Below, piece after piece: positions 7,260 to 32,167 of a stretch of DNA of 33,852 nt. Source of the stretch: Kiritimatiellia bacterium (GTDB taxonomy: Bacteria > Verrucomicrobiota > Kiritimatiellia > JAAZAB01); the NCBI GenBank assembly GCA_040767085.1, contig JAXGPF010000020.1, forward strand, positions 1 to 33,852. The letters run 5' to 3'. Positions within the stretch are counted from its first letter, which is position 1, and each line of letters starts with the position of its first letter. A program made the translations under genes and the position numbers. A model generated the notes under the pieces. That model did not search any database and had not been told where the DNA came from. It saw nothing but the letters and a program-made list of their open reading frames with translations.

Positions 7260-7931
7260 TTATTTTAACGCGTTTTCCATGCGCCGGGCTTCGTTGAGTA
7301 TCAATGCGGCCGGCGTGGCGGGTATGATCAATCCCCGGAATTCCGGCTTGCGCAAGAGGAAGAAAAGGCGGGCCAGGATATGCAGGTGGATTTTCGGAGT
7401 GGGGCTGGCCATCACGAACAGGGCGTATACAGGCAGACCGTCCACGGCGGCAAACTCCAGCGGCTGATCCAGGAAACAGAGCGCCGCCAGCGGAGCGGGC
7501 AATTGGGGCATGGGCTCGCGCGGGTGCGGAATCGCTATGCCGTCGCCGACGCCGGTGGAAACCATTTCCTCCCGCTCCAATAACCGCTGTAGCAGCATTT
7601 CGTCAGGGATGGAATCCGGCAGCGGCAAATGTTCCACCGCCGCCGTCAGCGCCGTGCGCTTATCCCGGCCCGGCAGGCGGTGAAAGATACCGCCGCGTTC
7701 CAGGGCCTCGGCAAATGACGGCAGCGGCCCGGGCTCGTGGCTGGGGGATGCGAGCAATTCCGCGGGGATGGCGATTTTATGCGCTGCCAGCCAGCGGTGC
7801 AGGTCTTCGGACCGGCAGCGGCGTTCGCCCTGGTATTCGCCGGCCGGCAAACCCATGCGCGTGATCCATTGCTCCACGGTGGATCGGGAGGTGCGCAGCA
7901 TGCGGGAAATTTCGTCAACGGTCAAGTACAT
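7260..7931 (-). CDS. Excisionase-type HTH fused to PTS EIIA (PtsN/Ntr-like) domain
   Basis: N-terminal [40 protein letters not shown] phospho-His motif; [17 protein letters not shown]. Confidence 0.9.
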
Positions 7932-15603: not shown

Positions 15604-16326
15604 ATGGAAAAACAGGAAACCTTGCGGATTATAGATCAGTTGCGCGCATTGCAGGAACTGGACGTCGCCATCATGCGCCTCCAGGCTGAATGCGACAGTG
15701 CGCCCGTGCGTAAAAAAGAAGCGGAAGCCGCCCTGGCCGGCAGCCGGCAGGCGCTCGAACAGGCGCGCGAAAATGTCAAGGCCCAGCAGTCGGCCATGCA
15801 CCAGTCGGAGTTGGAAGTGGAAGCCCTCCGCCAGCAGATTGCCAAACTGCGCACACAGCAATTCCAGATCAAAACCAACAGCGAATACCGCGCCTTAAAC
15901 CTCGAAATCGAGCACCTGGAGGATAAAATCCGGCGCTGCGAAGACGAGGAATTGCGGGTCATGGAGGAAATTGACGGCCTGCGCGGCCGGGTGGCCGAAA
16001 AGGAAGCGGAACTCAAGAAGGAACAGGAGCGCGTGGACGCTGAAATCCAGCGCCTCGAAACCCGCCGCCTGGCTTTGGAACAGGAACTGAGCCGCGCCGG
16101 CGCGGAACGGACCAAATTGGCCGGCGCCGTCCCGGAGCAATGGCTGGCGGTTTACGAGCGCGTCCTATCCAACAAAAAAGACAATGCCCTGGCCGGCTTG
16201 GACGGCAACGCCATCTGCGGCGGCTGCCACATGAAATTGCCCGCCCAGGTGCTGCATGATGTGCGCCGCGCGGAAACCATCAACCATTGCGTGTTCTGCG
16301 GGCGCCTGCTCTTCGACAATCATTGA
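15604..16326 (+). CDS. Coiled-coil plus C4 zinc ribbon protein (DUF164/CT398-like)
   Basis: LQELD start, long heptad region, IKTNSEYRAL, CGGCHMKLP and CVFCGRLL. Confidence 0.9.
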   Translation: MEKQETLRIIDQLRALQELDVAIMRLQAECDSAPVRKKEAEAALAGSRQALEQARENVKAQQSAMHQSELEVEALRQQIAKLRTQQFQIKTNSEYRALNLEIEHLEDKIRRCEDEELRVMEEIDGLRGRVAEKEAELKKEQERVDAEIQRLETRRLALEQELSRAGAERTKLAGAVPEQWLAVYERVLSNKKDNALAGLDGNAICGGCHMKLPAQVLHDVRRAETINHCVFCGRLLFDNH

Positions 16327-16335
16327 CCGATTTCT

Positions 16336-16700
16336 GGCTGAAGCAGACGGTCGCGCCGGACGGCTAGTCCGCCCGGTGAGGAAAGTCCGGACTCCCTGGG
16401 GCAGGGCGTCCCGGCGTCATGCCGGGAAACCTTCCGGTAAACGGAAGGGATGGAAAGCGCCACAGAAAATATACCGTCCGCTACGGCGGATAAGGGTGAA
16501 AAGGCGGTGTAAGAGACCACCGGGTCTGGCCGCAAGGCCGGCCGCAAGGCAAGCCCCGCCCGGAGCAAGATCAAATAGGAAACCGTTGGAGCGGCCCGCT
16601 CCCGGCCGCGGAGGCGCGGCCCGGTTTCGGGTTGATCGCATCAGATAAATGACCGTCATCCGCCTCCGGCGGAGACAGAATCCGGCTTATCGCTTCAGCC
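16336..16700 (+). ncRNA. rnpB: RNase P RNA, bacterial type A
   Basis: P1 GGCTGAAGC/GCTTCAGCC; GAGGAAAGTCCGG (16378-16390); GGAAAGCGCCACAGAAA; AGGGTGAAAAGGCGGTGTAAGAG; GGAGCAAG; AGATAAATGACCGTC; ACAGAATCCGGCTTA (16675-16689). Confidence 0.97.
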
Positions 16701-16709
16701 GCTTTTACC

Positions 16710-17621
16710 ATGGAAGAATCATACCTGATCCGCCAACGCATTAAGCTGCTGCAAACCGCCGCCGCCGCAGTTATGATTGCCGCCGCGCTGTTCCTGGCCT
16801 GGCGCGTCCGCGCGGCCTTCAACCTGCCGCGGCTGCCGGATGGCGGCGGTCATGTCACGGAAGTCTCGCCGGCAGCCGGTCCGGCAGCGGCGCCCTGGAA
16901 TGGGGCGGCCTTCCCGAAAAACCCCGCCGCCACACCGGTCTTCAATGGCGAGTTAGCCAGGCGCTACCGCCTGGCCGGCACATTCTTCGCCAGCGGCGAA
17001 CACCAGCAATCGCGCAAAGCCATTATTGACGATCTGCAGGCCAAAGGTCCGGAAAACCAGAAACTGGTAGGGGAGGGCGATACCCTGGACGATGGCGGCG
17101 TGTTGGTGGCGTCAATTCAAACCGAATTTGTGGTTCTGCGGGCGGGAATGCGCGAAGAGAAAATCTGGCTGAGTTTCGCCGGCGGCCCCAGCCATGCTGC
17201 GGCGGAGTCAGACCGCGCGGGACAAGCCGCCGCCGGCGGCGCAGCGGACATGCTCGCGCGGTTTGGCGCCCGCGTGGAAGACCGGCGCTGGTTGCTTAAA
17301 CGCGATGCGCTTCTGCAATATTACCAGGAATTGATGGCCGACACCGAACGCCTGGGCAAGGTTTTCGAATCGCTCAAGCCGGTTTATCAGCAAAGCCGGA
17401 TTGCCGGTTACGTCCTGGATGTCGCCGGCGAAAAGGACATGTTCCATGCCTTCGGATTGCGGCAGAATGACGTCATCCGCAAGGTCAATTCCATGCCCAT
17501 GAACAGCCAACGGCGCGCTGAATATTTTATCAGCGAATTCGTCAAAAACCGCGTCAACGGCTTCGTCCTTGATATCGAACGCGACGGCAAACCTCAGAAA
17601 TTCGTCTACTTGATCCGCTAG
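16710..17621 (+). CDS. Type II secretion GspC-like protein (TM, HR domain, PDZ)
   Basis: N-terminal TM, YRLAGT...KAII...LVGEGD...VVL HR-like region, C-terminal PDZ-like GLRQNDVIRKVN...IERDGK. Confidence 0.75.
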   Translation: MEESYLIRQRIKLLQTAAAAVMIAAALFLAWRVRAAFNLPRLPDGGGHVTEVSPAAGPAAAPWNGAAFPKNPAATPVFNGELARRYRLAGTFFASGEHQQSRKAIIDDLQAKGPENQKLVGEGDTLDDGGVLVASIQTEFVVLRAGMREEKIWLSFAGGPSHAAAESDRAGQAAAGGAADMLARFGARVEDRRWLLKRDALLQYYQELMADTERLGKVFESLKPVYQQSRIAGYVLDVAGEKDMFHAFGLRQNDVIRKVNSMPMNSQRRAEYFISEFVKNRVNGFVLDIERDGKPQKFVYLIR

Positions 17622-18072: not shown

Positions 18073-19335
18073 ATGGATGATTTTTCCAATGACCTTATGC
18101 GCTGGATTGACCAGGATCAGAGCGCTTTGATTGATTTCCTTTGCCGGTTCATCCGTGCCAGGACTCCCAATCCGCCCGGACATACCGCCGACGCCTGCCA
18201 ACTTGTCGCCGAACTCCTGGATGTCCATCGGATTCCATATCAAATTATAGAGCCGGAACCTGGCAAACAAAACCTGTTGGCGTCGTTCACCGGCGCGCGG
18301 CCCGGCCGGAGTCTGATCCTCAACGGGCACATGGATGTTTTCCCGGTGGCGGATGAATCGGCCTGGACCTATCCGCCCTGGAGCGGCGCCATCGCCGAAG
18401 GCCGGATTTACGGCCGCGGCGCCTGCGACATGAAATGCGGGACGGCGGCTTCAATTTTCACCTTCATCTTCCTGCACCGCCTGCGGGAACGCCTTGCGGG
18501 CCGTTTGACACTGACGGCGGTGTGCGATGAGGAAAATTACGGCCCGGCCGGGGCCGTGTATCTAATGGAGCATCACCCGGAGATTTTGGGCGATTGTTGC
18601 CTGAACGGCGAACCCAGCAGCCAGCATACCTTGCGTTTCGGCGAGAAAGGCATCCTGCGCCTGAAAGTCACCGTGCGCACGCCCGGATCACATGGGGCTT
18701 ACACACATCTGAGCCCCAGCGCGACCATCCTGGCGGCGCAGATCATCCAGGACTTGCGTCAAATCACCAGGATGCCGGTCAATACGCCGCCGGCCATCGC
18801 GCGCTGGCTGGATGCCGGCCGGGCGGTGACCGACCAGGTGCTTGGCGCCGGCGGCGCGGACACGCTCCGGCAAGTCACCCTGAATGTCGGCCAGTTGCAT
18901 GGCGGCGAGGTGATCAATTTGGTGCCGTCCGAGTGCGCCATCGGCCTGGATATCCGCCTGCCGGTCGGCGTGGCCGAGGCGGCGGTGGTGGCCGCCGTCA
19001 AAACCATCCTGGCCAGATATCCGGCCGCCCAATTGGAGCCCATGGCTTCCGCTCCTACCCTTTGGAGCGATCCGGATGGCGAGATACCGCGCATCATCCG
19101 CCGCCGCGTGCGGCAGTTGAAGGGATTCGAGCCGGCGCCGATCATCAGCCTGGGCGGCTCGGACCTGCGCCTGTGGCGCGCGCGCAATATCCCCGCGTAT
19201 TACTACGGCCCGACCAACCACGGCATGGGCGTGGCGGATGAATACGTCGAAATCGAGGAATACCTGCACATCATCCGTACGCACGCCTTGGCGGCGCACG
19301 ATTATCTGACGGCCGGTCATTCAACGGCATCGTAA
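18073..19335 (+). CDS. M20 family metallohydrolase (ArgE/DapE-like)
   Basis: LILNGHMDV, GRGACDMK, CDEE, GEPS, GSHGAY, GGSD, YGP...DEY. Confidence 0.9.
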   Translation: MDDFSNDLMRWIDQDQSALIDFLCRFIRARTPNPPGHTADACQLVAELLDVHRIPYQIIEPEPGKQNLLASFTGARPGRSLILNGHMDVFPVADESAWTYPPWSGAIAEGRIYGRGACDMKCGTAASIFTFIFLHRLRERLAGRLTLTAVCDEENYGPAGAVYLMEHHPEILGDCCLNGEPSSQHTLRFGEKGILRLKVTVRTPGSHGAYTHLSPSATILAAQIIQDLRQITRMPVNTPPAIARWLDAGRAVTDQVLGAGGADTLRQVTLNVGQLHGGEVINLVPSECAIGLDIRLPVGVAEAAVVAAVKTILARYPAAQLEPMASAPTLWSDPDGEIPRIIRRRVRQLKGFEPAPIISLGGSDLRLWRARNIPAYYYGPTNHGMGVADEYVEIEEYLHIIRTHALAAHDYLTAGHSTAS

Positions 19336-21665
19336 AAATTCAAGCCGACTTTCCAGTCGAGGCTGATCGGCCGTGCGCCGAATCCCTCGGCGGCCGACCA
19401 TTGGGTCAGCATTTCCTCGATGCGCCGGCGCAGCAGCAAACTCGTGCGATGCCGGACTGCGCCGCTTTCAACCACGAGGTAGAGCCGGAATTCCTGGACC
19501 GGCCGGCGCCGGAAAATATAAAAGCCGCCGGCGGCATCCCAACGGGATTTGGATGATGACATGATTGTCCGGAGTTCCGGCTGCATGGCCGCGAAAATGG
19601 CGTCCGCCGCCGCGTTCACATCATTGGCGGGAAACCGCGCGCCGGCGGCACGGCCGGCGGCGGTGAATAAGGCCACTTCGCAGCCGCCATCCGGGGTGTC
19701 AGCCAGCACCAGCACGCCATCCGGGCATTTCAGGTTTTTATTGGTGAAAACACCCAGGGCCTGCTCTTGCATCCCGCCCGCGCCGGCGTTGGCGGCAGCC
19801 TGTTTCTGGGATTCGCTTCCCGCGGCCTTGTCCTGGGTTGATTCGGAGCGCAGTTCCAACGCGCGGGCCGCTGCCGCCGCTCCCTCATCCGGCTGGCCGG
19901 CCGCCGCGGCAGATGCGCTGGCCGCGCTGGATTCAGCATCCCGGCTGACGCTGTCATAAAGCTGGCGGACTGTCTTCTCAAGCTGTTGTTCGGTATTGGC
20001 CAGCAGGCCGGCATAGGGGCTGCCGGTTTTTTTTACCGTTTTCCGCCAGTCGGCCAAAAGTTGTTTCCGCCAGTCGGCGGTAATGGCGCTGACCGGCCGG
20101 TTGTTTTTCACATCCTTACGCAGGCGCTCCATCCGGGTTTTTTCCAGCGCGGCCAGCAGGTTGAGCTGTTCGGTCGCGGTCCAGTAGCCATCGGCAATCC
20201 GCGCCGCGGCGGCCGCCAAAACCTTTTGCGCGGTTTCGTCGAGCAGATTGAGGCCGGCCGGATCGGGCAATCCTGCATACACGCCCTGGCGCATCCTTGC
20301 CAGCGCGGCCTCGAGGGCGGCCGGCGGTGCGCCGCGCTGCTCCAGGATCGCCGCCAGGCAGGCATCGTTCAGCGGGATTGGTTCATCCAGCGCCGCGAAG
20401 TGTTCGGCATATTGCCGCTCGGCAAGCTCGCGCCGGAGATCAGGCAGGATCACTTGCAGTTGGTCATGAACAAGGTTGGAGAGTTCCTTACGTGCTTCAT
20501 CCCGGCCGCAAAGCTCCAGAAAATACGGGGCATCCGCCGGCGCCGGCGCGGCATAGGCTTCGGCAATTCTGGGCGGCAATACGCGCAGATACTCCGTCTG
20601 CAACAAGGCCAGGCTGTTGCTTAGAGACGCATGGGCAGCCAAATCCAGTTGGATCGCGGCGGCTGAGTCAGAGGATGTGATCATGGCAGCCGTGCGCTCG
20701 CGTAAAAATGCCTGGAACCGGCTGGCTTCGAGGTCGGCGGCCGCCGCATCGCGATGGCGGACGACAATATTAAACACCCCGTACCGCGGCGCGCCGTCAG
20801 CCGGCTCCAGTTTGGCGGCGGCGCGGTCCAGGGCCGCGGCCAAATTCCGCGCCATGGCGTCGGCGCGCCGGACATCCGCGGGGAGCGCGGTGGCGGCGGC
20901 ATCGAGGGTTTCAACCTGTGCTTCATATTGACGCTGGATTTCCATCCGCATCCGGCCGCCGGCGTCGCGGACGTGTTTGGCGACTTCCTCAAACATCGGG
21001 CTGGCGGCGGCGCCAGCCCGTGATTCCAGCCAGTCCTGCAACCTGGAATATTCGGCTTCGCCCAGGCGGTCAGCCGGCGGTCGGCCGTCCAGCAGCGCGG
21101 CTAACTTGCCGTCCAATTCCGGCATGGCCGGGTACTGTAGCTGCTGGTCAGCCTCCAGGACGGCCAGGGCGACGACGCGGCGGCGGGCTTCGGCAAACAC
21201 TGCCGGAAACGTTTTTTCCGCAAAGGCGTCCAATCGGGCTTCGATCAGGGCCGGCCATTCCGCGCCCAGCGCATTTTTAATATCCGCCACGGCCACCGGC
21301 GCCGGCGAATATGCGCGCATCTCATCCGCCGCCGACTGGAGGATGCTTTCGGCGGTTTCCCGGCGCCAGGCGCGGGCAAGTTCCCGGGATTTATCGCGGC
21401 TGGCGGCCAGGGCGGCATGGGCGGCCATATTCGTCTGCATGGCGCCAGCCAGATATTCCACCAGGACAATCCGTTCGGCTTCCTGCGCGTCGGGAAGCTG
21501 GGCCGCGGCTTCCTGCGCGCGTTTGGCGGCCGCGCGGATGGCCAGCCGCCATTTGGCCCGGTTTTTGACAGCATCTTCCGCGGCAGCCTGCCCGGTGAGC
21601 GCCGTGCACAAAAGCAAGGCCGCCAATGTATGGCCAAGCCGGCTGATTTTACCAGATATAATCAT
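19317..21665 (-). CDS. Exported, largely alpha-helical protein of unknown function (782 aa)
   Basis: Signal peptide (LAALLLCTALTGQAAA), Ala/Leu/Glu/Arg-rich helical body, Ser/Ala linker, alpha/beta C-terminal domain; 3' end overlaps the convergent M20 gene by 19 nt. Confidence 0.8.
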   Translation of the reverse strand: MIISGKISRLGHTLAALLLCTALTGQAAAEDAVKNRAKWRLAIRAAAKRAQEAAAQLPDAQEAERIVLVEYLAGAMQTNMAAHAALAASRDKSRELARAWRRETAESILQSAADEMRAYSPAPVAVADIKNALGAEWPALIEARLDAFAEKTFPAVFAEARRRVVALAVLEADQQLQYPAMPELDGKLAALLDGRPPADRLGEAEYSRLQDWLESRAGAAASPMFEEVAKHVRDAGGRMRMEIQRQYEAQVETLDAAATALPADVRRADAMARNLAAALDRAAAKLEPADGAPRYGVFNIVVRHRDAAAADLEASRFQAFLRERTAAMITSSDSAAAIQLDLAAHASLSNSLALLQTEYLRVLPPRIAEAYAAPAPADAPYFLELCGRDEARKELSNLVHDQLQVILPDLRRELAERQYAEHFAALDEPIPLNDACLAAILEQRGAPPAALEAALARMRQGVYAGLPDPAGLNLLDETAQKVLAAAAARIADGYWTATEQLNLLAALEKTRMERLRKDVKNNRPVSAITADWRKQLLADWRKTVKKTGSPYAGLLANTEQQLEKTVRQLYDSVSRDAESSAASASAAAAGQPDEGAAAAARALELRSESTQDKAAGSESQKQAAANAGAGGMQEQALGVFTNKNLKCPDGVLVLADTPDGGCEVALFTAAGRAAGARFPANDVNAAADAIFAAMQPELRTIMSSSKSRWDAAGGFYIFRRRPVQEFRLYLVVESGAVRHRTSLLLRRRIEEMLTQWSAAEGFGARPISLDWKVGLNFYDAVE

Positions 21666-21734
21666 GCTCGTTCCATGAATCCGTGATGAGTTATCTTAAC
21701 AACATAAAATCCTGTCATGGATTCAGGGGTTCCC

Positions 21735-22544
21735 CTACCCGCCAGGTTGCCGGTCCGCGCCGGGCGCCGGATGATGATATTCCGCCACGATGCCGGGCAG
21801 CAAAGGATATCCAAGGCGGCGCATTTCCGCCGCCACTTTCGCCATCTGCGCATCCGGCCGGCTGTCCATCAGCGGATCGTTTGGCGGCATTTCCGCCGCC
21901 AGCCGGTCCAGCGCCGACCACTGGAGCATCTCGACCTGCGCCTTCCATTTTCGGCAGCGTTCGTGGATGTATTGCATGGCGAAATCCCGGCGGGCATCGT
22001 CAATCCGGAACTCCGCCGAGATACCGGCGGCGGCCGGCTTGTCATCGCCGAGCGCCGGATCATACATGGGGAAAAACGCGGCAACGTCAGAGTCCGCTGC
22101 GCCGGGCGCAGCTTCGGGGTGATAGCTCAATGCGTCGCGGTAAAGTCCAAGGCTCATTGCCTCAATATCCGCTAATTCCTGGGATTTGGCGCAAAGTTTT
22201 TGAAACGCCGGATCATCCGGCCGGCCATTCCGCCAGAAAACGCGCTGAAAGTCGGGGAAGGCCGGGATGCCGGCGGCGTTTTCCCAGGCATCCGCGGCGC
22301 GGTCAATGCGCAGGATCAATTGCTGTTTCCACAACTCCAGGATCACCGGACCTTTCTCCAGCGCCGCCAGCCCCTGGCCGATGGTCATCAACCGTGTGGC
22401 AATCGCCAGGATCAGGACCAGCGGCAGCGAGATTTGCACCAGGACATCGTTCGGACTCAGGGAAAAGAGCTTGCGGGGCGACCGGCCGGAGAGCGCGTCC
22501 AGCGCTTCGAACTGCAAGCGGGCGTTGGCGGAGTGGTCAGGCAT
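21735..22544 (-). CDS. Single-pass membrane protein, putative MotB/ExbD/ZorB-like subunit
   Basis: Short N-terminus, Asp33 immediately preceding hydrophobic VLVQISLPLVLILAIA; ATG overlaps the upstream gene end by 8 nt. Confidence 0.6.
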   Translation of the reverse strand: MPDHSANARLQFEALDALSGRSPRKLFSLSPNDVLVQISLPLVLILAIATRLMTIGQGLAALEKGPVILELWKQQLILRIDRAADAWENAAGIPAFPDFQRVFWRNGRPDDPAFQKLCAKSQELADIEAMSLGLYRDALSYHPEAAPGAADSDVAAFFPMYDPALGDDKPAAAGISAEFRIDDARRDFAMQYIHERCRKWKAQVEMLQWSALDRLAAEMPPNDPLMDSRPDAQMAKVAAEMRRLGYPLLPGIVAEYHHPAPGADRQPGG

Positions 22545-23751
22545 GGCGTTTGTCGTCAGATCCCATCAAGGCCGTGCCGCCGATGTAAGCCGCCAAAGAC
22601 TGGCGCAGCGATTGCTGATCGGCCAGCCGGGCGTCATGGCTTTGCCGGGTGACCGCGACAAGGCTGGCAAGCGTCGCCGAGAGCTCGTCATAGCGCCGCG
22701 CGTTTTCGCAGCGTTCCGACGCCGATTGGTCGCGGGCTTCCTCCAGGCAGCCCGCCACTCGTTGGAGTTGCCGTGCATCTTCCTCGGCGCACGCGCGCAG
22801 CGCCTTGGCCGACTCAGCCAGTTCCGTGAATCTGGCCGTCTGTTCAACCTGCTGCCGCGCGGATTCATGGACATCGGCGCATAACCCGTCGAAGCGGGCA
22901 AGGCTGGCGCGCAGTCCGGTTTCAAGTCCGGCGATTTGTTTCAGGAATGCATTGGTTTCCTGTTGCGCCCGCACGGCATTTTCAATGGCGCCGCCGGCCG
23001 CCTGCAATCCGCCGCACAATGCGCGCATGGCGGCTTCCTGGCGTTCCATGCGCTCGAACAATCCAGCCAGCACTGGCGGGTGGAGATTTTCGGCGAAAAT
23101 CCGGCTGGCCTGGCCGAGTTCCCGGAGGTCGGCGGTCAGGCTTTCAACCGTTTCCGTGAGCGTCCGCCGGCTTTCCGCCGGGGTGATACCGGCCAGTTTG
23201 CGGAACAGCCATGGGATGGGCCGCGCGGCGAGGAAGGCGCCGACCAGGCCGGCGAGTGAACTGAGCAACGCGGTGGCCGTGCCGGCCAGCAGGCGTTCCA
23301 AGGCGAGGCGGATGGTGTCGGCCGTCGGCGCTTCCCGGGCCAGTTCCGGTACGCCGCTGACATACAATCCCATGAACATCCCGTAAAGCGTGCCGGCCAG
23401 CCCCAGCATCACCAGGAAAAAGCCGAAATGCGCGGGATACGGGTCCGCCTCCAGCTTGTGCGCAAAGGCCGGATTGGCTGGCAGCCGTCGCAGGATGCGC
23501 AGCGCCTGGACCAGCGGGTATAGGAGCATCAACAGCGGGATCAGCGTGGTGATCGTGCTGAGGTCAAGGGACATGATCGCAAACCGGGCAAACCAATCCG
23601 GCGGCAGGATGCGTTCCAGCAGCAGGCATTGCGGGGACCAGACCCGCACCGCCAGTTCCAGATTCACCAACCAGGCCAGCAGGGCCGGCGGCAGGCATGC
23701 CAGGCAGACCAGCGCCACCAGCGCCATATTACGGCTTTCGCGATTATTCAT
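22537..23751 (-). CDS. MotA/TolQ/ExbB-family ion-channel protein with long C-terminal coiled coil
   Basis: LVMLGLAGTLYGMFMGL and LLAGTATALLSSLAGLVGA match the two conserved channel helices; about 210-aa helical tail. ATG 23751 preferred over 23787 because of GGGAG SD and upstream TTGGCA-18nt-TATGCT. Confidence 0.75.
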   Translation of the reverse strand: MNNRESRNMALVALVCLACLPPALLAWLVNLELAVRVWSPQCLLLERILPPDWFARFAIMSLDLSTITTLIPLLMLLYPLVQALRILRRLPANPAFAHKLEADPYPAHFGFFLVMLGLAGTLYGMFMGLYVSGVPELAREAPTADTIRLALERLLAGTATALLSSLAGLVGAFLAARPIPWLFRKLAGITPAESRRTLTETVESLTADLRELGQASRIFAENLHPPVLAGLFERMERQEAAMRALCGGLQAAGGAIENAVRAQQETNAFLKQIAGLETGLRASLARFDGLCADVHESARQQVEQTARFTELAESAKALRACAEEDARQLQRVAGCLEEARDQSASERCENARRYDELSATLASLVAVTRQSHDARLADQQSLRQSLAAYIGGTALMGSDDKRHA

Positions 23752-24107
23752 GAAGACACTCCCGGATTGGCGGCGAGCATATTCCATTCCGGCGGGTTAT
23801 GCCAATACTTTTTATGGGACAGGGGCAACTACTTGCAGGAAATCAATCGCATAACCGAACGGCATGCGCCTTTTCCATCGTCGGCTTCCCGCCGCCGCCT
23901 TGATGATCTTTGTGTCTTCGCAGGCAAAATGCAAATTGCCGCCCATGACAGGCATGGCTATCAATTTTGCCAATATGGACGACGCCCCGGGTTAATACCG
24001 GACATCCATTCGCCCATCAAGAGATGCAAACCATGAGAATCAGGGCCGGAACAGGGAAAATCGGGCAGGCCGATACTCTTCACAATTCAACTCCAGCCCC
24101 GCGGCCC

Positions 24108-27100
24108 TCATTCCAGCGTTAATGTCAATTGCGAAACCAGGATCGGACCGTCCAGGCGCAGAATGCCATCCATCGGGTAATCCACCGCGAACCAGAGGTT
24201 GTAAACGCCCGGCGGCAGCACCATGCCTTGCGCCAGCACGATCCGCGGCATGTTCATCAGCGGACCCTGGTACGCCGGCTGGCAGTTGGCAAGATTGCCG
24301 TCAAACTCGATAAATGCCATGTCGCGGCTCAGGTAATACCAGAGATTCCCGTTATGCGCATACGCCGCTACCCACCAATCCACGTTGTACCCGATATATT
24401 CGGCGGGCAGGTTCATCATCTCCAGGGTAATAGTGATGGGCGTGCCGGCGGGCAGGCACACGTTGTCGCCCACCATACCGTTGACACTCACCAGCGGGCC
24501 GACTTCAGCCAGGTAGCCCGTATCGAATTCGCTGAACGCGCTCGTGCCGGCGGTGTTTACCGCCTTGACCCAGTAGTAATAAGTCATCTGATTGCGGGCG
24601 GTCAGATCATCATACCAGCGCAGGGCGGTCTGCCCGATTTTCCGGGCCGCGCTGGCATCGGGCGCGGTATGCCGCCAGACTTCATAAGACGCAGCGCGGG
24701 CGGCGGCTTCCCAACTCACGCGCACTTTATCGGTATATTTTCCGTCACTGGCGGAAATACCCGCCGGCGGAGCCGGCCCCACCTCCTGCACGATGATCAC
24801 GTTGGTCGCAGTCGCCGCCGCGTTCCAGTTGGAATTGCCCGCCTGCGCCGCCGCGATGGCCACCGTGCCCGCGGCGGTAAACGTGAGACGGTTGCCCCCT
24901 GCAATCTTGCCCGGGCCGGATGACACTGCAAAAGCCACCGACAACCCGGAGGAAGCGGTTGCCGACAATTTCACCGTGTTGGTAACCATCTGGTCGGGAA
25001 TGGCCGGGAACACGACGGTTTGCGCGGCCTTGGCGATGGCGAGCATGGCCTTGGTCTGGCCTTGATAGATCGCGCTAGCTACCGTCCCCGTCACGGCGTA
25101 CGCGCCCGCGTTTACCGGCGGCGCCGCCTGGCCGTTATAAGTCAAAGCGACGGTAAGGCCGGTGGGAACGGACACGGCGTTGACAATGCGCGGCGCGCCG
25201 TTATAGGTCTGGTTCAGGTTATGGAGCGTCACCTGAGCCGGGGCCTTGGCGACGTTGAATGTACTGGTAACATTTAGCGCGGCGCTCCAGATGGCATTGC
25301 CCGCCTGCACGGCCACGACGGCCACCGTGCCGGCCGCCGTGAAAGTCAGGCTGTTGTTCGATTCGATCGTTCCCGGCCCGCTTCCCACCACAAAGCTCAC
25401 CGGCAGCGCGGAGGATGCGGTGGCGGCCAGGCTGACTGTATTCGTCGCGATCTGCGGGCCGGGATTGGCGAAGGCAATCGTCTGGGTCAGCTTCTCCCCC
25501 TGCCCGGACAACGCCACGGCCACGCGCGGCGCATAACGGTCATTGCTGTCAATCAGAACTTCAGCCCGGTTGGAAAGCGCGGCCTGGGGCCTATAGGTCA
25601 CATCGAATGTCATCGATCCATTGGCCGGTATCGAGCAAGGCAGCGCCGGGGCATTGGAAAACGAAAACACCGCGCCCCCGCCGTTGGCCACGGCCATCTC
25701 CATCTCGTCGTCGGATTGGAACTCGCCCACCAGGCGGCTGGCGCCGGTAGCGGTGTCAAGAACCCGCAACGCCCCGCCGCCCGAGTAGTAGGCCGCCCAG
25801 TAAAGGATGTCGTTGGCCTCGTCGAAGTCCAAGCCTTGCGCATAGTTAGCGTTGATTCCCAACGGCCCGATGATCGTGCCGACGCCCGTTGTCTTGTCAA
25901 TGGCCACCAGACGATCCCAGGTTATATCCACGCCGTACATCTTGCCTTCGGCGTTGATCGCGATGCCAATGTAGGTTCCGGGACGGCTGATATCCGTTAT
26001 AAACGTGGCTTCGCCGGTGTTCGGGTTGATCCGGTAAAGCTTATAGTTGGCGACGGCATACAACGTCCCGTCCACGGGATCGCCAGCCAATCCGGTCCAA
26101 TGAAAACCTGTTGCCGGCACGGCGGGGCCGATAAGCGTTATGTCGCCGGTCGTCGTATCGATCGAAACCAGGGTATTGGAGTAATAATGCAGCGCGTATA
26201 ATTTGCTGAAATCCCCGTTAAGGAAGTCGCAGGCAAAATAATCGGCCGGGCCATCCTTGATTGTCATCAACGTTCCCGGCGTCGCCGAGGAGAAAGACAC
26301 CAGAGAATCTTCGTGAAGATCAAGCCCGTAGCACGGCACCGTGCTGGGCGCCGGGGTCGGATCCTCCCCCCGTAACGGCTCCCGCTTCTTCGCCGGCGCG
26401 CGTTCCGTGAATACCGCTTTCCCGGGATTTGCGACCAGCCCGGCGCCAGCCGCGCCCCACCCTCCCGCGCCCGCCCCGCCATTAGTGCCGGCCAGCATCC
26501 GCACGGCGATATTGGTAATCACCAGCGGATAGCTGGAATCGGCGTTGGTGATCGTTATTTGCTCCGTCCGCGATTGCCGGAGCTGCACGACGCCAAAAGG
26601 CATGTTCGTGTCGTTATAGGGCGGAATGGAATCGAGCACTTCGATATTGCCCGGCTGCGGCAGGACCGTTAAGGCCGCTGCCCGCGAATACGCCGTGCCC
26701 GAGGTCTCGTTCGAGAAGATCACCGCGCTTTCATAACTGCCCGCGGCCAAAGAACCCGCCTCTGCGGCTACGATGGACACCGTCACCTCGGCCGAAGCGC
26801 CGGCGGCCAACACTCCGCCCGGCGCGGAGAGCGCGGCCCAGGCCTGGGTTTGCGCGGCCGACCAGGTCAGTGCATTATCCCCCGCATTGGTCAAGGTGTA
26901 AACAATGTTTGTGGGCGCAAAGCTGTCACCCTCGCCCATGTATCCGCTGGAGGCCAGCCCGTTGGAGGGCGACACCGTCATGGGTTCGTGCACAGTCAGG
27001 GTCGCCGTGCGCTCCTGCGTGGTCCCGTCGGTTATATTCGAGAATACCAGCCGGTTGGTATAAACGCCGGGCGCCAGGCTTGCGGCCGACGCATTGGCCT

Positions 27101-30100
27101 GCGCGGTAACACGAACCCAACCGGCGGAATCGAGATAGCCGTATGACGGGGTCACATCCAGCCAGGCTTGCGAGCAGAGGCTGGTCCAGGACAGAGACAA
27201 CAGATTGGTGTTGGCCAGCTGGTACACGCGTTCCGGCGCAAACGGGCCGCCATGGTAGCCGGACGCATTCAGCCCCGCCGAAGGCACGATGCAGGGATTG
27301 CCGCCGGTTATTCCGGATAATACGACGTCATCCACCTGCCACCACCAATCATAGTTGGCGTTGTGGTAACGGAAGCGGAACATCACGTTTGCCTGGCCCG
27401 CGACTTGGGAAGAAACGTCGAGCACGATGTTCGTCGGCCCCCGGTAGTCCTCCTCGGTTTTTCTCCATAGGTTGACCCATGGCCCCGCGGCGCCGTTGAC
27501 GCTGACATCCACGTCAGCTATTTCGACATCGTAAGAATTAAAATCGTTCCTGAACGAAAACTCCGCGGCCTTCAGGGCGGAGCAGTCCACCACGGGCGTC
27601 CGTAATTCCGTGTCCATGTTGACTTCACCCGCATAATCGCTGTCGGCAATGGCGAATCCATTGCTGCCGCCGGTCCTGTTGCCGCGCTTGCCCGGGTCGT
27701 CGAACCGCCATTTGGCGGAGCTGCCGACGATAGACCAGCCCGCCGGCAGGCCGGCGCTGAAATCGCTCGTCATTAAAAGCGGCAATTGGATGGCGAGATC
27801 AACCGCACGCGCCGCTGTGCCGCCATCGGTCATATTGGAAAAAACGACCGTGGCCGCATACGCGCCCCCGGCCATAACGGCGGCTTCGTCGTTAAGCGAC
27901 ACGGTAACCGGCAGGACGGCGCCGGCGGCCAGAACGCCTCCGGACACGGACAACTCCACCCAGGCGGCATCGCACTGCGCCGTCCACGTTAATGGCGCCA
28001 GCGAGGCATTGGTCAGGCTATATACATACCCGGTTGGCGCAAAGGGCCCGCCCTCGTCACCCGCGAAAGAGCATCCCGATGTCGGCGCAACCTGCAGGGG
28101 AATGGGCGTCAGAGCAAAATTCCGGGTGGTGACGCCATCGAGCGTAATGGTTACGGAAACCGCCGCGCTGGTCGCGTAATTCTGCGCCGAGACGACCGCC
28201 CAGTGGGTTCCAGGCGCAAGGAAGATGGAATACTCGCCGCTGCCGAGCGAGAGGGTCGAGTCGCCGCTATTGGTCAACGCAATCCGCGCGCCTTCAATCG
28301 CCTGACCGGTGAGCATGTTGGTGACCACGCCCTGGAGCGTTCCGGCTTCACCCATGCCCGTGACCAGGACATCGTCAATACACACGCCGAATCCATAGTC
28401 GGCAACGCCCTCAAAAGCAATGAAATAGTTGGTTCCCGGAGCGGGAAGGATGACGGTCCGTTTGGTCCAGGGCGTTGTGCAAGTCGCATAATTGGTCAGC
28501 AGAACCCACGCCGCTTCCGCGTTGGTGCGGTAATAAATTGAAAGGGTGTCCTGGTCTTCCAACCAGTCTTCCATGTAATGCCAAAATGTCAGCTCGGTAT
28601 GGTTGGTAAACATCCTGAAGTTAATTGGCGGCGTGACCAACCTTGTGCAATCGTCGTCCGACGAGTAAAACGCGGCATTATACGAGCCGCCGTGCGCGCC
28701 GGACGGCGTATGCTGGTTTGGCCAGCCGCCGCTGATAAATACCCAGTCTTGCCCGCCAACATCATATTCTTGCGACCAGCCCGGCGGCATGCCCCCGTCA
28801 TGCTCGAATCTTTCCGATAAGAGCGCGGGCGCTTCGGTGGTGAACGACCAGACCTCCCCTGTCCGTGTGCCGCCGGAGGTATGGGCGTCAACCCGCCAGT
28901 AATAGGTTGTGCGGTAACGCAAGCTGCCGGGATCAAACCAAGTGGCTTCCTGCGCGCCCATGAACTCGCCCGCGCCCGGCGAGGCATTGGTGCCGAAGTA
29001 GACGTCGAAACTCGTGGCGCCGCCGGCGTTGCCCCACGACATTTTGGCGCCGCGCGCCACGCCTGTTTCCCCATCGGCCGGTTCGGGGCCGCTGGCTTTG
29101 GCCGGGGCCGAAACTGACGCCGACCGGATCGCAAGCGCATAAGGCTGCGGTCCCTGGGGGATGTTGTACCCGATCACCTTGATGGTCAGCGCGCCGATCG
29201 GCGCCGGGTCAAGGTCTATCCCTTCCACATTATTGATCCGATCGAAACCCGAGCGCCCGAACGCGTAGTTGGTCGTGCCGCCGGGCGTAATCACCACCAA
29301 ATCGAGATCGTTCACGAGCTGAACGGCCGCCGCCTCGCTGCCCGGGTAGTCGGTCCAGGCCAGGATAACCGATACGCGGCCGGTGCGGGTGACATTAAAC
29401 GTATACGTATGGGCGCCGCCGGTGGCCAGCGCATTGGTCCCATCGTAAAACATATTGGTGTGGCCCGCGCCCGGGAAGAGCGAAGCGCCAAGGTTGACCT
29501 GCCCCCAGCCTTCAACATTGTTGGGACGGGGGGCGCCGGGCACTTCCCGCTCAGCCCCGGTTCCATATTGTCCGGGAGTCAGAGACTTGGCCCCGGCTAT
29601 CAGTGCCGCTTTGACCAGCGCCGCGCAGGGATTCGTAAAGCCCCGCAACTGCATCAGATATTGGCGCGCAATCGCCGCCGCTCCGGCTGTAAGCGGCGTG
29701 GACATGCTGGTGCCGCCGCTGAACATGTAATAGTTGCTGGCAGAATTGCCCAGGATGCCGCTGCCCGTGCCCCAAGCAGTTCCCGCTCCGCTCACGCGCG
29801 ACCGGCACGAAACAATGTCCGTGCCTGGTGCGACAATGTCCGGCTTGATCCGTCCGTCATTGCACGGGCCGCGGCTGGAAAAGGCCGCCATGCCCTGGCG
29901 CAGGCCGTCGGCGCTGGTCGAAATCAAATCGTCGCTGATAGGCGGCACGGGATAATAATACTTCCACCCTTCGGTGCCCCACGTGTATGACGAATATCCG
30001 CCGGAACCATCGGGGCGATGACTTTCCGAAGCGCCAACGGTCAGCACGTTTTTGGCCGTGCCGGGAGTGCCCATGCGCTGCCAATCTATAACCCCGTCGC

Positions 30101-31331
30101 GGTCGCCGTCGCGGCCTTCGTTGCCGGCGGAAAAAACTACCAGCATGTCCGGATGGTTCCACATGAACGCGTCCGCGTTGGCGGAGTCCACGTTATAACA
30201 GCCATTCATCGAAGAGCCCCAACTGTCGGAATGAATCCGCGCATCGTTGGTGTAGGCCTGTAGAAAGAGGTCGTTCAAATCCGCGGGAACACCACCCAAG
30301 CTGCCATACTCGTCCATAACCGACTGCATCACCAGACGGGCGCCATAGGCCACGCCGTGGAACAGGCCGTTGCTGTAAGCGCGGCCATCCCCCGCGAGGG
30401 ATCCCGCCGTGTGCGTGCCGTGCCCGTCAGGGTCGCTCCAATCACCGGGGCGTCCCAGCGCAAAAGCCGCTTTCACCCGGTTGGTGAAATCCGGGTGCAA
30501 GGTGCCCAGGTTGCCGGTGTCGAAGCCTGTGTCGGCGATGCCCACAACCTGCCCGGCGGCGGTCAAGCCGTAATCGGCCTGCACCGCGGCGGCGTTCATC
30601 CGGGGCGATTCCTGCGCCACGTTATTATGCAGTTCGCGCGGAACATAGTCCTCGATCCATTCGACCTCGCCCAGGGCCGCCAGGCTCTCCACTGCCGCGA
30701 GCGGAACCTGTGCGCGGATCAGGCCGCGCCGGCCGCCCCGGCTCTCGCGCAGCACCTGGCCGCCGGCGGCGGCGACGGCCTGAGCCACGCGGCCGGCGTC
30801 CTCGGGCCGAAAGGTCAGGATGGTCACAACGCCGATGGACGCCGCGGCGGCGGATGCCTCGGCCGGGGACTGGGCCGCCGCCTTGCGGTCAACGGCCGGC
30901 GCCGGGGTCGCGGCGCGGGCCTTGAGCCGCGGCTGCATCTTATATTCGGCCCGGTATTCCCCGATCCATTGCACGTCCGCGATTTTAGCGATAGCGTCAA
31001 GGCTGCCGGGATCGGCCAGGACGACGAAGGCGTTCTCCGGCAGATAGAACTTGATTTCAGCGCCGGCTGATTTCAGCGCCGCCTTCCATTCCGCGCGGAT
31101 GGGCCCGGCGAATTGCACGATATAAGGAAGCGTGCCGCGCGCCGGCGCAACCGCCGGCCTCTCCGCCGCAATCTTATCCGTATGGCGCCCGGTTTTTTTG
31201 CTTTTGGCAACCGCGGCGGATGTGTCAATGACGCCGCCTGCCAAACGTATTTCCGACGCCGTCCCCCGGACATGGAAGATGCCCGCGAGGAATAGGGACG
31301 CAACAACAACGGATAACCGGCATATTTTCAT
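24108..31331 (-). CDS. Giant secreted S8 (KP-43-like subtilisin) serine protease with multiple accessory domains, 2407 aa
   Basis: Signal peptide from ATG 31331, propeptide, triad GIADTG / GHGTH / GTSMSTP, AGNEG oxyanion motif, LVNDLDL beta-barrel, then FN3-like, jelly-roll, Ig/BACON-like repeats, propeller-like region and MBG-like domain. Confidence 0.93.
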   Translation of the reverse strand: MKICRLSVVVASLFLAGIFHVRGTASEIRLAGGVIDTSAAVAKSKKTGRHTDKIAAERPAVAPARGTLPYIVQFAGPIRAEWKAALKSAGAEIKFYLPENAFVVLADPGSLDAIAKIADVQWIGEYRAEYKMQPRLKARAATPAPAVDRKAAAQSPAEASAAAASIGVVTILTFRPEDAGRVAQAVAAAGGQVLRESRGGRRGLIRAQVPLAAVESLAALGEVEWIEDYVPRELHNNVAQESPRMNAAAVQADYGLTAAGQVVGIADTGFDTGNLGTLHPDFTNRVKAAFALGRPGDWSDPDGHGTHTAGSLAGDGRAYSNGLFHGVAYGARLVMQSVMDEYGSLGGVPADLNDLFLQAYTNDARIHSDSWGSSMNGCYNVDSANADAFMWNHPDMLVVFSAGNEGRDGDRDGVIDWQRMGTPGTAKNVLTVGASESHRPDGSGGYSSYTWGTEGWKYYYPVPPISDDLISTSADGLRQGMAAFSSRGPCNDGRIKPDIVAPGTDIVSCRSRVSGAGTAWGTGSGILGNSASNYYMFSGGTSMSTPLTAGAAAIARQYLMQLRGFTNPCAALVKAALIAGAKSLTPGQYGTGAEREVPGAPRPNNVEGWGQVNLGASLFPGAGHTNMFYDGTNALATGGAHTYTFNVTRTGRVSVILAWTDYPGSEAAAVQLVNDLDLVVITPGGTTNYAFGRSGFDRINNVEGIDLDPAPIGALTIKVIGYNIPQGPQPYALAIRSASVSAPAKASGPEPADGETGVARGAKMSWGNAGGATSFDVYFGTNASPGAGEFMGAQEATWFDPGSLRYRTTYYWRVDAHTSGGTRTGEVWSFTTEAPALLSERFEHDGGMPPGWSQEYDVGGQDWVFISGGWPNQHTPSGAHGGSYNAAFYSSDDDCTRLVTPPINFRMFTNHTELTFWHYMEDWLEDQDTLSIYYRTNAEAAWVLLTNYATCTTPWTKRTVILPAPGTNYFIAFEGVADYGFGVCIDDVLVTGMGEAGTLQGVVTNMLTGQAIEGARIALTNSGDSTLSLGSGEYSIFLAPGTHWAVVSAQNYATSAAVSVTITLDGVTTRNFALTPIPLQVAPTSGCSFAGDEGGPFAPTGYVYSLTNASLAPLTWTAQCDAAWVELSVSGGVLAAGAVLPVTVSLNDEAAVMAGGAYAATVVFSNMTDGGTAARAVDLAIQLPLLMTSDFSAGLPAGWSIVGSSAKWRFDDPGKRGNRTGGSNGFAIADSDYAGEVNMDTELRTPVVDCSALKAAEFSFRNDFNSYDVEIADVDVSVNGAAGPWVNLWRKTEEDYRGPTNIVLDVSSQVAGQANVMFRFRYHNANYDWWWQVDDVVLSGITGGNPCIVPSAGLNASGYHGGPFAPERVYQLANTNLLSLSWTSLCSQAWLDVTPSYGYLDSAGWVRVTAQANASAASLAPGVYTNRLVFSNITDGTTQERTATLTVHEPMTVSPSNGLASSGYMGEGDSFAPTNIVYTLTNAGDNALTWSAAQTQAWAALSAPGGVLAAGASAEVTVSIVAAEAGSLAAGSYESAVIFSNETSGTAYSRAAALTVLPQPGNIEVLDSIPPYNDTNMPFGVVQLRQSRTEQITITNADSSYPLVITNIAVRMLAGTNGGAGAGGWGAAGAGLVANPGKAVFTERAPAKKREPLRGEDPTPAPSTVPCYGLDLHEDSLVSFSSATPGTLMTIKDGPADYFACDFLNGDFSKLYALHYYSNTLVSIDTTTGDITLIGPAVPATGFHWTGLAGDPVDGTLYAVANYKLYRINPNTGEATFITDISRPGTYIGIAINAEGKMYGVDITWDRLVAIDKTTGVGTIIGPLGINANYAQGLDFDEANDILYWAAYYSGGGALRVLDTATGASRLVGEFQSDDEMEMAVANGGGAVFSFSNAPALPCSIPANGSMTFDVTYRPQAALSNRAEVLIDSNDRYAPRVAVALSGQGEKLTQTIAFANPGPQIATNTVSLAATASSALPVSFVVGSGPGTIESNNSLTFTAAGTVAVVAVQAGNAIWSAALNVTSTFNVAKAPAQVTLHNLNQTYNGAPRIVNAVSVPTGLTVALTYNGQAAPPVNAGAYAVTGTVASAIYQGQTKAMLAIAKAAQTVVFPAIPDQMVTNTVKLSATASSGLSVAFAVSSGPGKIAGGNRLTFTAAGTVAIAAAQAGNSNWNAAATATNVIIVQEVGPAPPAGISASDGKYTDKVRVSWEAAARAASYEVWRHTAPDASAARKIGQTALRWYDDLTARNQMTYYYWVKAVNTAGTSAFSEFDTGYLAEVGPLVSVNGMVGDNVCLPAGTPITITLEMMNLPAEYIGYNVDWWVAAYAHNGNLWYYLSRDMAFIEFDGNLANCQPAYQGPLMNMPRIVLAQGMVLPPGVYNLWFAVDYPMDGILRLDGPILVSQLTLTLE

Positions 31332-31366
31332 GGTCTCAGTTTTAATATTTACCAGACTCGCATTTC

Positions 31367-32167
31367 TCAAAATCCCGTTTCCCCGCGTTTCCTTTGCCGC
31401 GCGATATTTAACAGAAATTCGTCAAATTCCCTGGCGGCTGCCGGATTAGTTGCACTGATGGCCCCGCCGCGGTCGTCATCGGTGACAAAGACAATCCGCT
31501 CGTTAGCGGCCACGCCCTTGAGAATGCCGCGCGCCGATGCTGCCGGAGTGATGGCGGATTTCGGCGCCCGCCCGGCCCAGATCGGCGTGGCGACGGTCCC
31601 GGGGATGACGGCGGAAAAACGTATGTTTTCATCCCACAACTCATAACGGAGCGAGCCGGTAAGCCCGATCAGCGCGGACTTGGTGGCGCTGTACATGCTT
31701 TGAAAAGGCATGGGCACAAAACCGATGCCGGAAGCGGTGTTGGCGATATGCCCGCCGCCCTGTGCCCGCATGACCGGCAAGACCGCCCGGATTCCGTACA
31801 AGGCGCCGTAAAAATTCACATCGAAGGCGAACTTCCAATCGGCGTCGGTTGTTGCGTCAAAAGGCTTGCCCAAACCGAGCCCGGCGTTGTTGAAAAGGAA
31901 ATGAATCTGACCTGATCCGTAAGCGGCGGCCTGGCGGATCATGCCTGCCACGCTTTCCTGCCTGGTCACATCGGCCTGGATGCCAGACACCTTGCCGGGG
32001 TATGCCGCCTCGAGCCGTTCGCTTTCCTTTTTAAGTTTATCGGCGTTGAGATCCGCCAGGATGACCGTCCTGGCGCCGTATGACAAAAGCGTTTCGCACA
32101 ATGCCAACCCGATCCCCGACGCGCCGCCAGTAACGACGGCGACCTTGTTTTGGTAATAATTATTCAT
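31367..32167 (-). CDS. Short-chain dehydrogenase/reductase
   Basis: VAVVTGGASGIG, NNAG, YSATK; start ATG 32167 (MNNYYQNK) with GGAGG upstream. Confidence 0.93.
   Translation of the reverse strand: MNNYYQNKVAVVTGGASGIGLALCETLLSYGARTVILADLNADKLKKESERLEAAYPGKVSGIQADVTRQESVAGMIRQAAAYGSGQIHFLFNNAGLGLGKPFDATTDADWKFAFDVNFYGALYGIRAVLPVMRAQGGGHIANTASGIGFVPMPFQSMYSATKSALIGLTGSLRYELWDENIRFSAVIPGTVATPIWAGRAPKSAITPAASARGILKGVAANERIVFVTDDDRGGAISATNPAAAREFDEFLLNIARQRKRGETGF

Follow-up and report, generated by a model that had tools for sequence, protein, structure and literature searches.

A conserved three-gene operon of Kiritimatiellia and other PVC bacteria, candidate for a new family of ion-driven membrane motors with a ZorA-like ring subunit

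Motors built from five ring subunits and two axle subunits (5:2 motors) are, to our knowledge, the only devices that convert the ion gradient across the inner membrane into mechanical work on behalf of the envelope. Each described class, be it the flagellar stator, the Ton or the Tol system, the motor of gliding and type IX secretion (T9SS), or Zorya, has opened a field of its own. Here we describe a three-gene locus in a stretch of 33,852 nucleotides from a Kiritimatiellia bacterium (assembly GCA_040767085.1, contig JAXGPF010000020.1, positions 1 to 33,852; hereafter the window). The genes, called A, B and C below, lie on the minus strand and are best read, with a probability of roughly 55%, as a new family of ion-driven 5:2-type motors that is more likely to serve as an envelope machine than in phage defense.

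Among the described systems closest to this locus is type I ZorAB of Escherichia coli NCTC9026 (PDB 8QYD), in which a 5:2 assembly carries a long cytoplasmic tail whose tip recruits effectors; ZorA Thr147, in the second transmembrane (TM) helix, and Ser184, in the third, touch ZorB Asp26 and form a selectivity filter, and the double mutant is dead (PMC11946911, in part). The corresponding conserved residues of the ion path in the Tol system are TolQ Thr178 and TolR Asp23 (PMC12215075, in part). GldLM is likewise a 5:2 motor that runs on proton motive force (PMF); GldM has no peptidoglycan anchor and transmits motion through its periplasmic domain, and GldL has two TM helices and a protonatable glutamate of its own, Glu49 (PMC8986121, in part). 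B-type helices with unusual periplasmic domains are also known from the 'transpore helix' proteins with von Willebrand factor A (vWA) domains, partners of TolQ-like motors that occur in PVC bacteria (the Planctomycetes, Verrucomicrobia and Chlamydiae group) as well; they combine an Asp-bearing TM helix with a non-canonical periplasmic domain and have been proposed to rotate inside TolQ-like rings (PMC12204202, in part). The trio described here does not appear in the available sections, supplements aside, of two surveys, one of MotAB relatives (PMC12505986) and one of force transducers (PMC12204202), and among the papers searched we found none that describes the trio, joins Kiritimatiellota with Zorya or names ZorA-like, ZorAB-like or Zorya-like proteins.

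Gene A (22537..23751, -) encodes a predicted ZorA-like membrane protein of the MotA/ExbB/TolQ superfamily with 404 amino acids, gene B (21735..22544, -) a single-pass membrane protein of 269 amino acids, presumed to be the axle or 'transpore helix' subunit, and gene C (19317..21665, -) a secreted protein of 782 amino acids whose family has no known relatives; all coordinates of parts given here were confirmed by translation. As the initial annotation of the window had it, the three genes are co-oriented and the first two overlap by 8 nucleotides (ATGCCTGA). Genes B and C are 69 nucleotides apart, and the 3' end of C runs 19 nucleotides into a convergent gene for an M20 peptidase (18073-19335, +; overlap 19317-19335), with no terminator-like site above chance level around the two 3' ends. 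The longest open reading frame (ORF) of gene A (22537-23787, -) would yield 416 amino acids. The start at 23751, which the initial annotation had preferred, is the most likely one because the three closest homologs are 404 amino acids long and cover 97% of the query, because GGGAG stands 7 nucleotides upstream of this ATG, and because the only promoter-like site upstream of gene A (TTGGCA-18 nt-TATGCT, 23776..23805, -) overlaps the ATG at 23787. Residue numbers of A follow the 416-residue frame unless stated otherwise, and subtracting 12 gives those of the 404-residue protein. The one weak point in the initial description is the promoter proposed for the trio, as sigma-70-like sites occur at chance level (2 in 5.3 kb versus 1.1 +/- 1.1 in shuffled sequences).

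A genome scan made with the gene B alignment and with family-specific patterns yielded 50 loci, each from a different PVC-group genome; the closest are labelled Kiritimatiellia or Verrucomicrobiota. In a word-based homolog search, gene A had 106 relatives and gene B 149; among the matches listed, all are unnamed or 'hypothetical' proteins, and their named sources are metagenome-assembled genomes of Kiritimatiellia, Lentisphaerae and Verrucomicrobia plus two Kiritimatiellota strain records. The same search gave only three close relatives of C, so relatives of C were collected with a local jackhmmer search of the fetched loci. The view that the three genes belong together is borne out by these loci: all 48 that are testable have A immediately upstream of B (L007 and L045 start inside gene B), and 43 of the 45 with downstream sequence have a homolog of C, about 750-800 amino acids long, as the next gene after B, five contigs ending at gene B. 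Spacing is tight as well, a possible start of B lying within 13 nucleotides of the stop of A in 47 of 49 cases (overlapping in 35) and a possible start of C within 13 nucleotides of the stop of B in 40 of 42 (overlapping in 23). FastTree trees built for the three genes from 36 genomes have 19-24 of 33 splits in common, compared with at most 2 after permutation of the labels. All three genes are under purifying selection: against close relatives, the ratio of nonsynonymous to synonymous substitution rates lies at 0.28-0.31 in gene A, 0.11-0.21 in gene B and 0.30 in gene C. With this selection and their conservation as a trio elsewhere, the genes are more than a chance observation. Flanking genes are conserved among near relatives only and differ between lineages, and no fourth gene is conserved with the trio across the 50 loci. 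We take A, B and C to be an autonomous, translationally coupled operon. An apparent fusion of B and C in one locus (L024:6977-10174, 1065 amino acids) is not real: the two genes are separated by a masked stretch of N, which had been read as X.

The kinship of A to known motors was sought with an alignment of its membrane domain, called A3, for which 40 of 49 sequences were kept, the other nine being near-identical or partial. The tail was excluded because a profile of full-length A was swamped in the PDB by coiled-coil proteins, among them SNARE designs, chemoreceptors and Rad50; gene A as a single sequence had no match in the PDB. With A3, nine PDB sequences were found at E<=10, of which the top four are the ZorA chains 8qyh, 8qyy, 8qyk and 8qyd (E 9.7e-4 to 6.2e-3), and a fifth ZorA-type entry, 8vvn_C, was matched at E 8.7; type I ZorAB is thus the only solved motor that the profile finds. 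By hhalign, A3 matches ZorA2 of type II Zorya from E. coli O157:H7 EDL933 (locus L054) with a probability of 92.1% (E 6e-7, 89 columns), which pairs A3 positions 58-166 with ZorA2 residues 15-103 and thereby segments 2-4 of A and the periplasmic loop between segments 3 and 4 with TM1-TM3 of ZorA2; full-length A (alignment A1) reaches 94.2% (E 1.2e-7). Similarity to TolQ and ExbB is lower (45%, E 2.2e-4) and has the correct motif register, GLFGTVWG of the E. coli K-12 proteins standing opposite LGLxGTLYG and GIAEALIATAIGL opposite GTATALLSSLxGL. The PADLOC model of ZorA2 (PDLC00635) finds 42 of the 43 family members at E<=1, with a best value of 7.2e-16 to which the coiled coil of the tail may contribute.

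The A profile also reaches beyond the family. In a search of 1.84 billion representative sequences, 231 clusters (50% identity) passed a threshold of E<=1e-3, and the stricter ones of E<=1e-10 and E<=1e-30 left 81 and 47. When the membrane regions of 78 distant relatives were compared with A3, the alignment had a probability of 99.9% over 182 columns and all four hydrophobic segments, and this set matches TolQ/ExbB at 83.9% (E 7.7e-6) and ZorA2 at 88.9%, which raises the probability for TolQ/ExbB from 45% in the direct comparison to 84% through the distant relatives. In 41 relatives, picked from the distant ones among 150 of the 231 clusters, PF01618 was matched at E<=0.01 in 26, always at profile positions ~35-125, and its gathering score (at least 22.9 bits) was reached in 6; ZorA models of PADLOC matched 8 of the 41 at E<=1e-5, all with 30 bits or fewer, and the distant relatives were rejected as bona fide Zorya proteins on account of these weak matches. 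Ten that were looked up are all unnamed or 'hypothetical', one of them from the Planctomycetota. This wider superfamily (P0256-P0359) consists of proteins of 300-600 amino acids with the four hydrophobic segments, the motifs and the coiled-coil tail of A, the recurrent motifs being an N within segment 1, D-x-S-T ahead of segment 2, P-[YF]-P, LGLxGT, and GTALLS. These comparisons support A as a divergent member of the MotA/ExbB/TolQ superfamily that groups with ZorA and has type II ZorA as its nearest kin. To judge from the same profiles, A is probably not itself a Zorya ZorA, and it stays below Pfam's own threshold.

The residues that carry ions in known motors are those best kept in A and B. 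The membrane domain of A (23200..23730, -) holds the two motifs singled out by the initial annotation, LGLAGTLYGM in TM3 (23377..23406, -) and GTATALLSSLAGL in TM4 (23245..23283, -). In a gap-free HMMER alignment of A3 with ZorA 8qyh, Thr147 and Ser184 of ZorA stand opposite A3 positions 114 and 151, which are T133 and T170 of A (T121 and T158 in the 404-residue protein), the latter being the first Thr of the second motif. T133 is kept in 173 of 173 distinct A-family sequences and T170 in 167 of 172; for T172, S176 and S177 there is no exception among 172 sequences. The TM pair thus combines a G-x-x-G-T-x-x-G motif with a second helix that bears hydroxyl groups, in register with solved motors. 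In B, one hydropathy peak (residue 43) follows a basic N-terminus, and Asp33 (codon 22446..22448, -) sits at the cytoplasmic end of the TM helix (VLVQISLPLVLILAIATRLM, 22386..22445, -; residues 34-53, from hydropathy), so that the single helix and its preceding Asp, as first described, are confirmed. Asp33, together with N32, L35, V36, Q37, L40 and P41, is kept in all 160 distinct sequences that cover this region, out of 161 for B; it corresponds by position to ZorB Asp26, and the conservation that the initial annotation had looked for at this residue is therefore complete.

Invariance of these ion-handling residues in both subunits is as expected for a working ion-driven 5:2 motor, not for a relic, and we consider it highly likely that the trio encodes a motor of the MotAB/ExbBD/TolQR/ZorAB kind. 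A and B might alternatively form a membrane-anchored coiled-coil scaffold or a channel that retains an ancestral TM motif, with C unrelated and merely co-transcribed. Such a reading would accommodate the lack of any Pfam or NCBIfam family for A, B and C, the marginal E-values that link A to solved motors, and the lack of significant similarity between B and any B-type subunit. It would leave unexplained why the Thr pair of A and Asp33 of B, the ion carriers of known motors, are the invariant residues, why the polar Q37 and P41 of B fall on the same helix face, why three TM helices of A align with ZorA2 at 92-94%, and why C shows translational coupling to B and an evolution in step with it; we regard this reading as very unlikely.

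The family-averaged hydropathy of A has four peaks, near residues 32, 87, 132 and 179-186, in agreement with the four hydrophobic segments initially reported. Mean counts of Lys plus Arg are 4.5 at the N-terminus and then 1.9, 2.7, 1.8 and 3.0, highest in the N-terminal, second-loop and C-terminal parts. On the strength of these peaks and counts, A would have four TM helices, with its N-terminus inside and its tail in the cytoplasm. The tail (22540..23199, -), a coiled coil put at ~210 residues in the initial annotation, measures 220 amino acids and has a hydrophobic period of 3.52 residues that none of 300 shuffles reached. Across the family its length ranges from 114 to 249 amino acids (median 198, n=45), conservation is seen at its two ends, the C-terminal one having the consensus DRxALRxAxAxY, and its matches in the PDB and Pfam are to coiled-coil proteins only. 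The spacing of two anchor motifs falls into one class modulo 7 in 48 of 89 sequences (those matched, by regular-expression heuristics, among 173, the rows being related to one another), which hints at a heptad phase that is kept and would equally fit a hairpin or a single helix. Some tails of the family are annotated as 'Zn-ribbon protein' or 'SbcCD ATPase', apparently because of coiled-coil likeness.

The tail bears directly on the possibility that the trio is a new type of Zorya-like anti-phage system, in which A and B would sense envelope damage through B and C and signal through the tail of A, the effector being C or encoded elsewhere. The closest characterized relative of A is indeed a type II ZorA, and ZorA is what its profile finds in the PDB; the tail is ZorA-like and has a conserved motif at its tip, the part that recruits effectors in Zorya (PMC11946911, in part). 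ZorA2 and A further share the short loop between the first and second aligned helices and the position of the tail at the cytoplasmic C-terminus, and in both systems the next gene downstream is for a single-pass partner whose TM helix has an Asp at its start. Two A-B pairs that lack C (L035 and L039) would also suit the modular make-up of defense systems. Yet A has one hydrophobic segment more than ZorA2, at its N-terminus, and its tail is about half as long, ~200 amino acids in the family and ~220 in the window, versus ~440-500 in ZorA (~440 for ZorA2, by subtraction from its 550 residues). ZorA1 has three TM helices, a membrane-proximal cytoplasmic domain of 80 residues with a Ca2+ site and a tail of 507 residues, none of which was found in A, and neither the dimerized peptidoglycan-binding domain of ZorB nor the required effectors ZorC and ZorD were found in the trio. 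Where type II Zorya has ZorE, this locus has the secreted 782-residue protein, and it lies outside a defense island. No ZorC/D/E, ZorF/G, nuclease or helicase gene was found in the window, and in the window's remaining 17 ORFs PADLOC detected no parts of defense systems, only generic domain likenesses. The single locus per genome, the housekeeping neighborhoods, the congruent evolution of the three genes and the lack of plasmid or phage copies point the same way, and we judge a defense system of this type to be improbable.

Plasmids were searched by tblastn with B and the membrane domain of A, and phages with B, without a match; a distant relative of A gave only spurious coiled-coil matches on plasmids, to Borrelia Bdr proteins. 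The GC content of the trio (0.62-0.64) equals that of the window.

The periplasmic part of B (21738..22385, -; 216 amino acids) contains no OmpA-like, ExbD/TolR or MotB domain: none of 39 family members matched OmpA, ExbD or MotB_plug in Pfam, or ZorB in PADLOC, and B found nothing below E 0.3 in the PDB. All 161 sequences have W72, K73 and Q74, and 152 of the 161 have C118; the domain is predicted to be novel and to lack a peptidoglycan-binding fold. The wall anchor that Zorya needs would thus be absent. We call B MotB-type because of its position after A, its topology and its invariant Asp, not because of measurable homology: the description of B as MotB-like in the initial annotation stands for these three features, and no statistical kinship to MotB, TolR, ExbD or ZorB goes with it. 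The likeness to MotAB and PomAB is of the same kind, consisting of four TM helices with the N-terminus inside (inferred for A), an Asp at the cytoplasmic TM end of B, and overlapping genes, whereas A lacks the large cytoplasmic torque loop of MotA, B lacks the OmpA-like domain of MotB, and the window has no flagellar genes. Compared with TolQ and ExbB, A lacks the large cytoplasmic domain that follows TM1 and precedes TM2, and B is without the periplasmic domain of TolR and ExbD. The vWA partners of TolQ-like motors offer a parallel for B in their unusual periplasmic domains; unlike them, B and C contain no vWA domain, and A is ZorA-like and tailed, not TolQ-like.

Gene C begins with a signal peptide (21579..21665, -; 29 amino acids ending in AAA before ED), and the exported 782-residue protein of the initial annotation is thus upheld: a hydrophobic core of this kind is present in C and in 36 of 38 family members, with variable N-termini. 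A large N-terminal region (19941..21578, -; 546 amino acids), presumably helical from its composition, is rich in Ala, Leu, Glu and Arg and contains scattered invariant residues. It is followed by a low-complexity Ala/Ser/Gly/Gln linker (19731..19940, -; 70 amino acids, poorly conserved and of variable length) and by a C-terminal domain (19320..19730, -; 137 amino acids) with more beta-formers and the conserved residues R738, H739, S742, R746 and W771. No Pfam family recurs in the C family and none fits an exported protein, and C has no relative in the PDB at E<=1. The N-terminal helix of the window's C carries S8-x3-H12-x6-L19, which resembles the SHLS motif; the likeness was rejected on the family alignment. 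Because the N-termini vary across the family as cleavable signal peptides with no conserved SHLS helix, and with an hhalign probability of 0.2% against TolA, C was rejected as a conserved, anchored transducer of the TolA/TonB type. No domain common to B and C was found, and the hydrophobic periodicity of their segments is mostly uninformative. C is more likely than not a physical partner of the motor.

GldLM and PorLM resemble the trio in that the B-type subunit has a large periplasmic domain without peptidoglycan binding and the A-type subunit a helical cytoplasmic extension. One could picture a machine of that style, in which anchored tails hold the A ring still and the dimer of B is the rotor that drives C, for surface motility or for the secretion of large substrates. 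The gene just upstream of the trio, for a secreted subtilase of 2420 residues that has adhesin-like domains, would fit such a task, as would the rotation inside TolQ-like rings proposed for vWA B subunits (PMC12204202, in part). Against this, Pfam scans of A, B, C and their families found no similarity to GldL, GldM or the Por families, GldLM comes from a different phylum, and the subtilase is not a conserved neighbor at other loci. The protonatable residue differs as well, a glutamate in GldL (PMC8986121, in part) versus the classical B-subunit Asp here. We think a GldLM-style machine unlikely.

The trio is better read as a new motor family because the periplasmic domain of B, the secreted partner C, the half-length tail and the lack of an effector all set it apart: the operon retains the ion-handling core and swaps all the parts that set the task of a motor. 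The product would be an inner-membrane motor driven by ions, probably protons. Five A subunits would form a ring around the TM helices of a pair of B subunits, ions from the periplasm would pass the hydroxyl pair T121/T158 of A (404-residue numbering) and protonate Asp33 of B, and the cycling of Asp33 would turn the A ring and the B dimer relative to each other. In the periplasm, the novel 216-residue domain of B would work with the secreted C, and each A would end in a coiled-coil tail of ~200 amino acids, ZorA-like and half as long. Its role may be a housekeeping task in the envelope, in which B and C would serve to energize or anchor some process of the periplasm or outer membrane. We weigh an envelope task somewhat above defense because of the single locus per genome, the congruent trees, the housekeeping neighborhoods, the lack of an effector and the lack of a wall anchor. 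Since the trio occurs in bacteria of the Kiritimatiellia type and other PVC bacteria, two strain records (L027 and L044) among them, a new PMF-coupled envelope function becomes testable, and the trio offers a non-defense relative for asking how Zorya evolved.

More tentatively, the trio could found a functional class of its own, in which a proton-driven ring, a coiled-coil shaft, the B domain and a periplasmic protein of 780 residues make up a mechanical device that spans the envelope of PVC bacteria and does something other than flagellar rotation, Ton/Tol work, gliding/T9SS or Zorya defense, and as the best-conserved branch of the wider ZorA-like superfamily. If so, that superfamily may be the housekeeping stock from which the ZorA of Zorya arose.

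Several observations weigh against an envelope motor of a new family, and temper the probability given to it. The nearest relative of A, to judge from its profiles, is a defense protein that is also tailed. Matches of the window's own A to family models are poor: the ZorA model of PADLOC finds it at E 3.6e-4 with 17 bits (residues 125-186), PF01618 has no match to it at E<=1 and is not among the 25 most-matched Pfam families of 43 A members, Pfam and NCBIfam return coiled-coil noise and no family, and hhalign of A3 gives no match to E. coli MotA. The MotA/ZorA-like character first assigned to gene A stands through the hhalign comparisons with ZorA2 and, at 45%, with TolQ/ExbB, and is not backed by the standard family profile. 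The four-helix topology is drawn from hydropathy, and A may instead have three TM helices as in ZorA1, segment 2 being a membrane-proximal helix. For B, hhalign probabilities do not exceed 1.7% with TolR/ExbD (1.3% in a TM-only comparison), 0.05% with MotB and 0.06% with ZorB2, and the register preferred with TolR puts Q37, not D33, opposite TolR D23. The two most divergent A-B pairs (L035:320-2287 and L039:5448-7726), with membrane domains 41-43% identical to that of the window's A, have no C downstream and are followed by unrelated genes, ORFs of 143 and 777 amino acids in L035 and a membrane protein of 639 amino acids in L039. Several cultured Kiritimatiellota are, we presume, not among the 50 loci; this, together with the family-specific patterns of the scan, means that the distribution may be patchy, as for an accessory system.

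Besides the trio, the window has 17 ORFs, which are counted as housekeeping genes, the large subtilase of the S8 family included. Recognizable neighbors of the trio include prfA, prmC, pdxJ, rpe, lepA, lepB, a gene for a LacZ-type enzyme of glycoside hydrolase family 2 (GH2), genes for M20 and M24 peptidases and for a short-chain dehydrogenase/reductase, and the RNase P RNA gene. The initial annotation had noted that the window holds no Tol/Ton, flagellar or ZorC/D/E genes, and the Pfam and PADLOC scans agree; Pfam found no Tol, Ton, TolB, Pal or flagellar gene in it. Just upstream of the trio and on the same strand lies the subtilase gene (24108-31370, -), whose 2420-residue secreted product has Peptidase_S8, CarboxypepD_reg, BACON_2, MBG_3, DUF4394 and Ig-like domains; it is not conserved beside the trio in other genomes.

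Elsewhere in the window, two ORFs belong to no Pfam or PADLOC family, one of 477 residues that runs off the window (2-1432, -) and one of 407 residues (32220-33443, -). No tRNA genes were found in the window. A full-length RNase P RNA of class A lies at 16335-16705 (+; 225.5 bits, E 3.5e-72). It is preceded by a gene (15604-16326, +) for a CT398-like protein with a coiled-coil hairpin and a C4 zinc ribbon (PF24481 and PF02591) and followed by an ORF of 303 residues (16710-17621, +) without a Pfam family. The C-terminal 80 residues of the latter resemble PulC/OutC (GspC) of type II secretion (PDB 5hj1 and 6hcg, E 0.002-0.007); its residues 101-139 match polyubiquitin with E-values down to 4e-6, a likeness that no stretch alone passes and that is probably spurious. 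Beside the LacZ-type GH2 gene, a fusion of HTH_17 with the EIIA-2 domain of the phosphotransferase system (PTS) is encoded at 7260-7931 (-), and this protein of 223 amino acids may be a sugar-responsive regulator.

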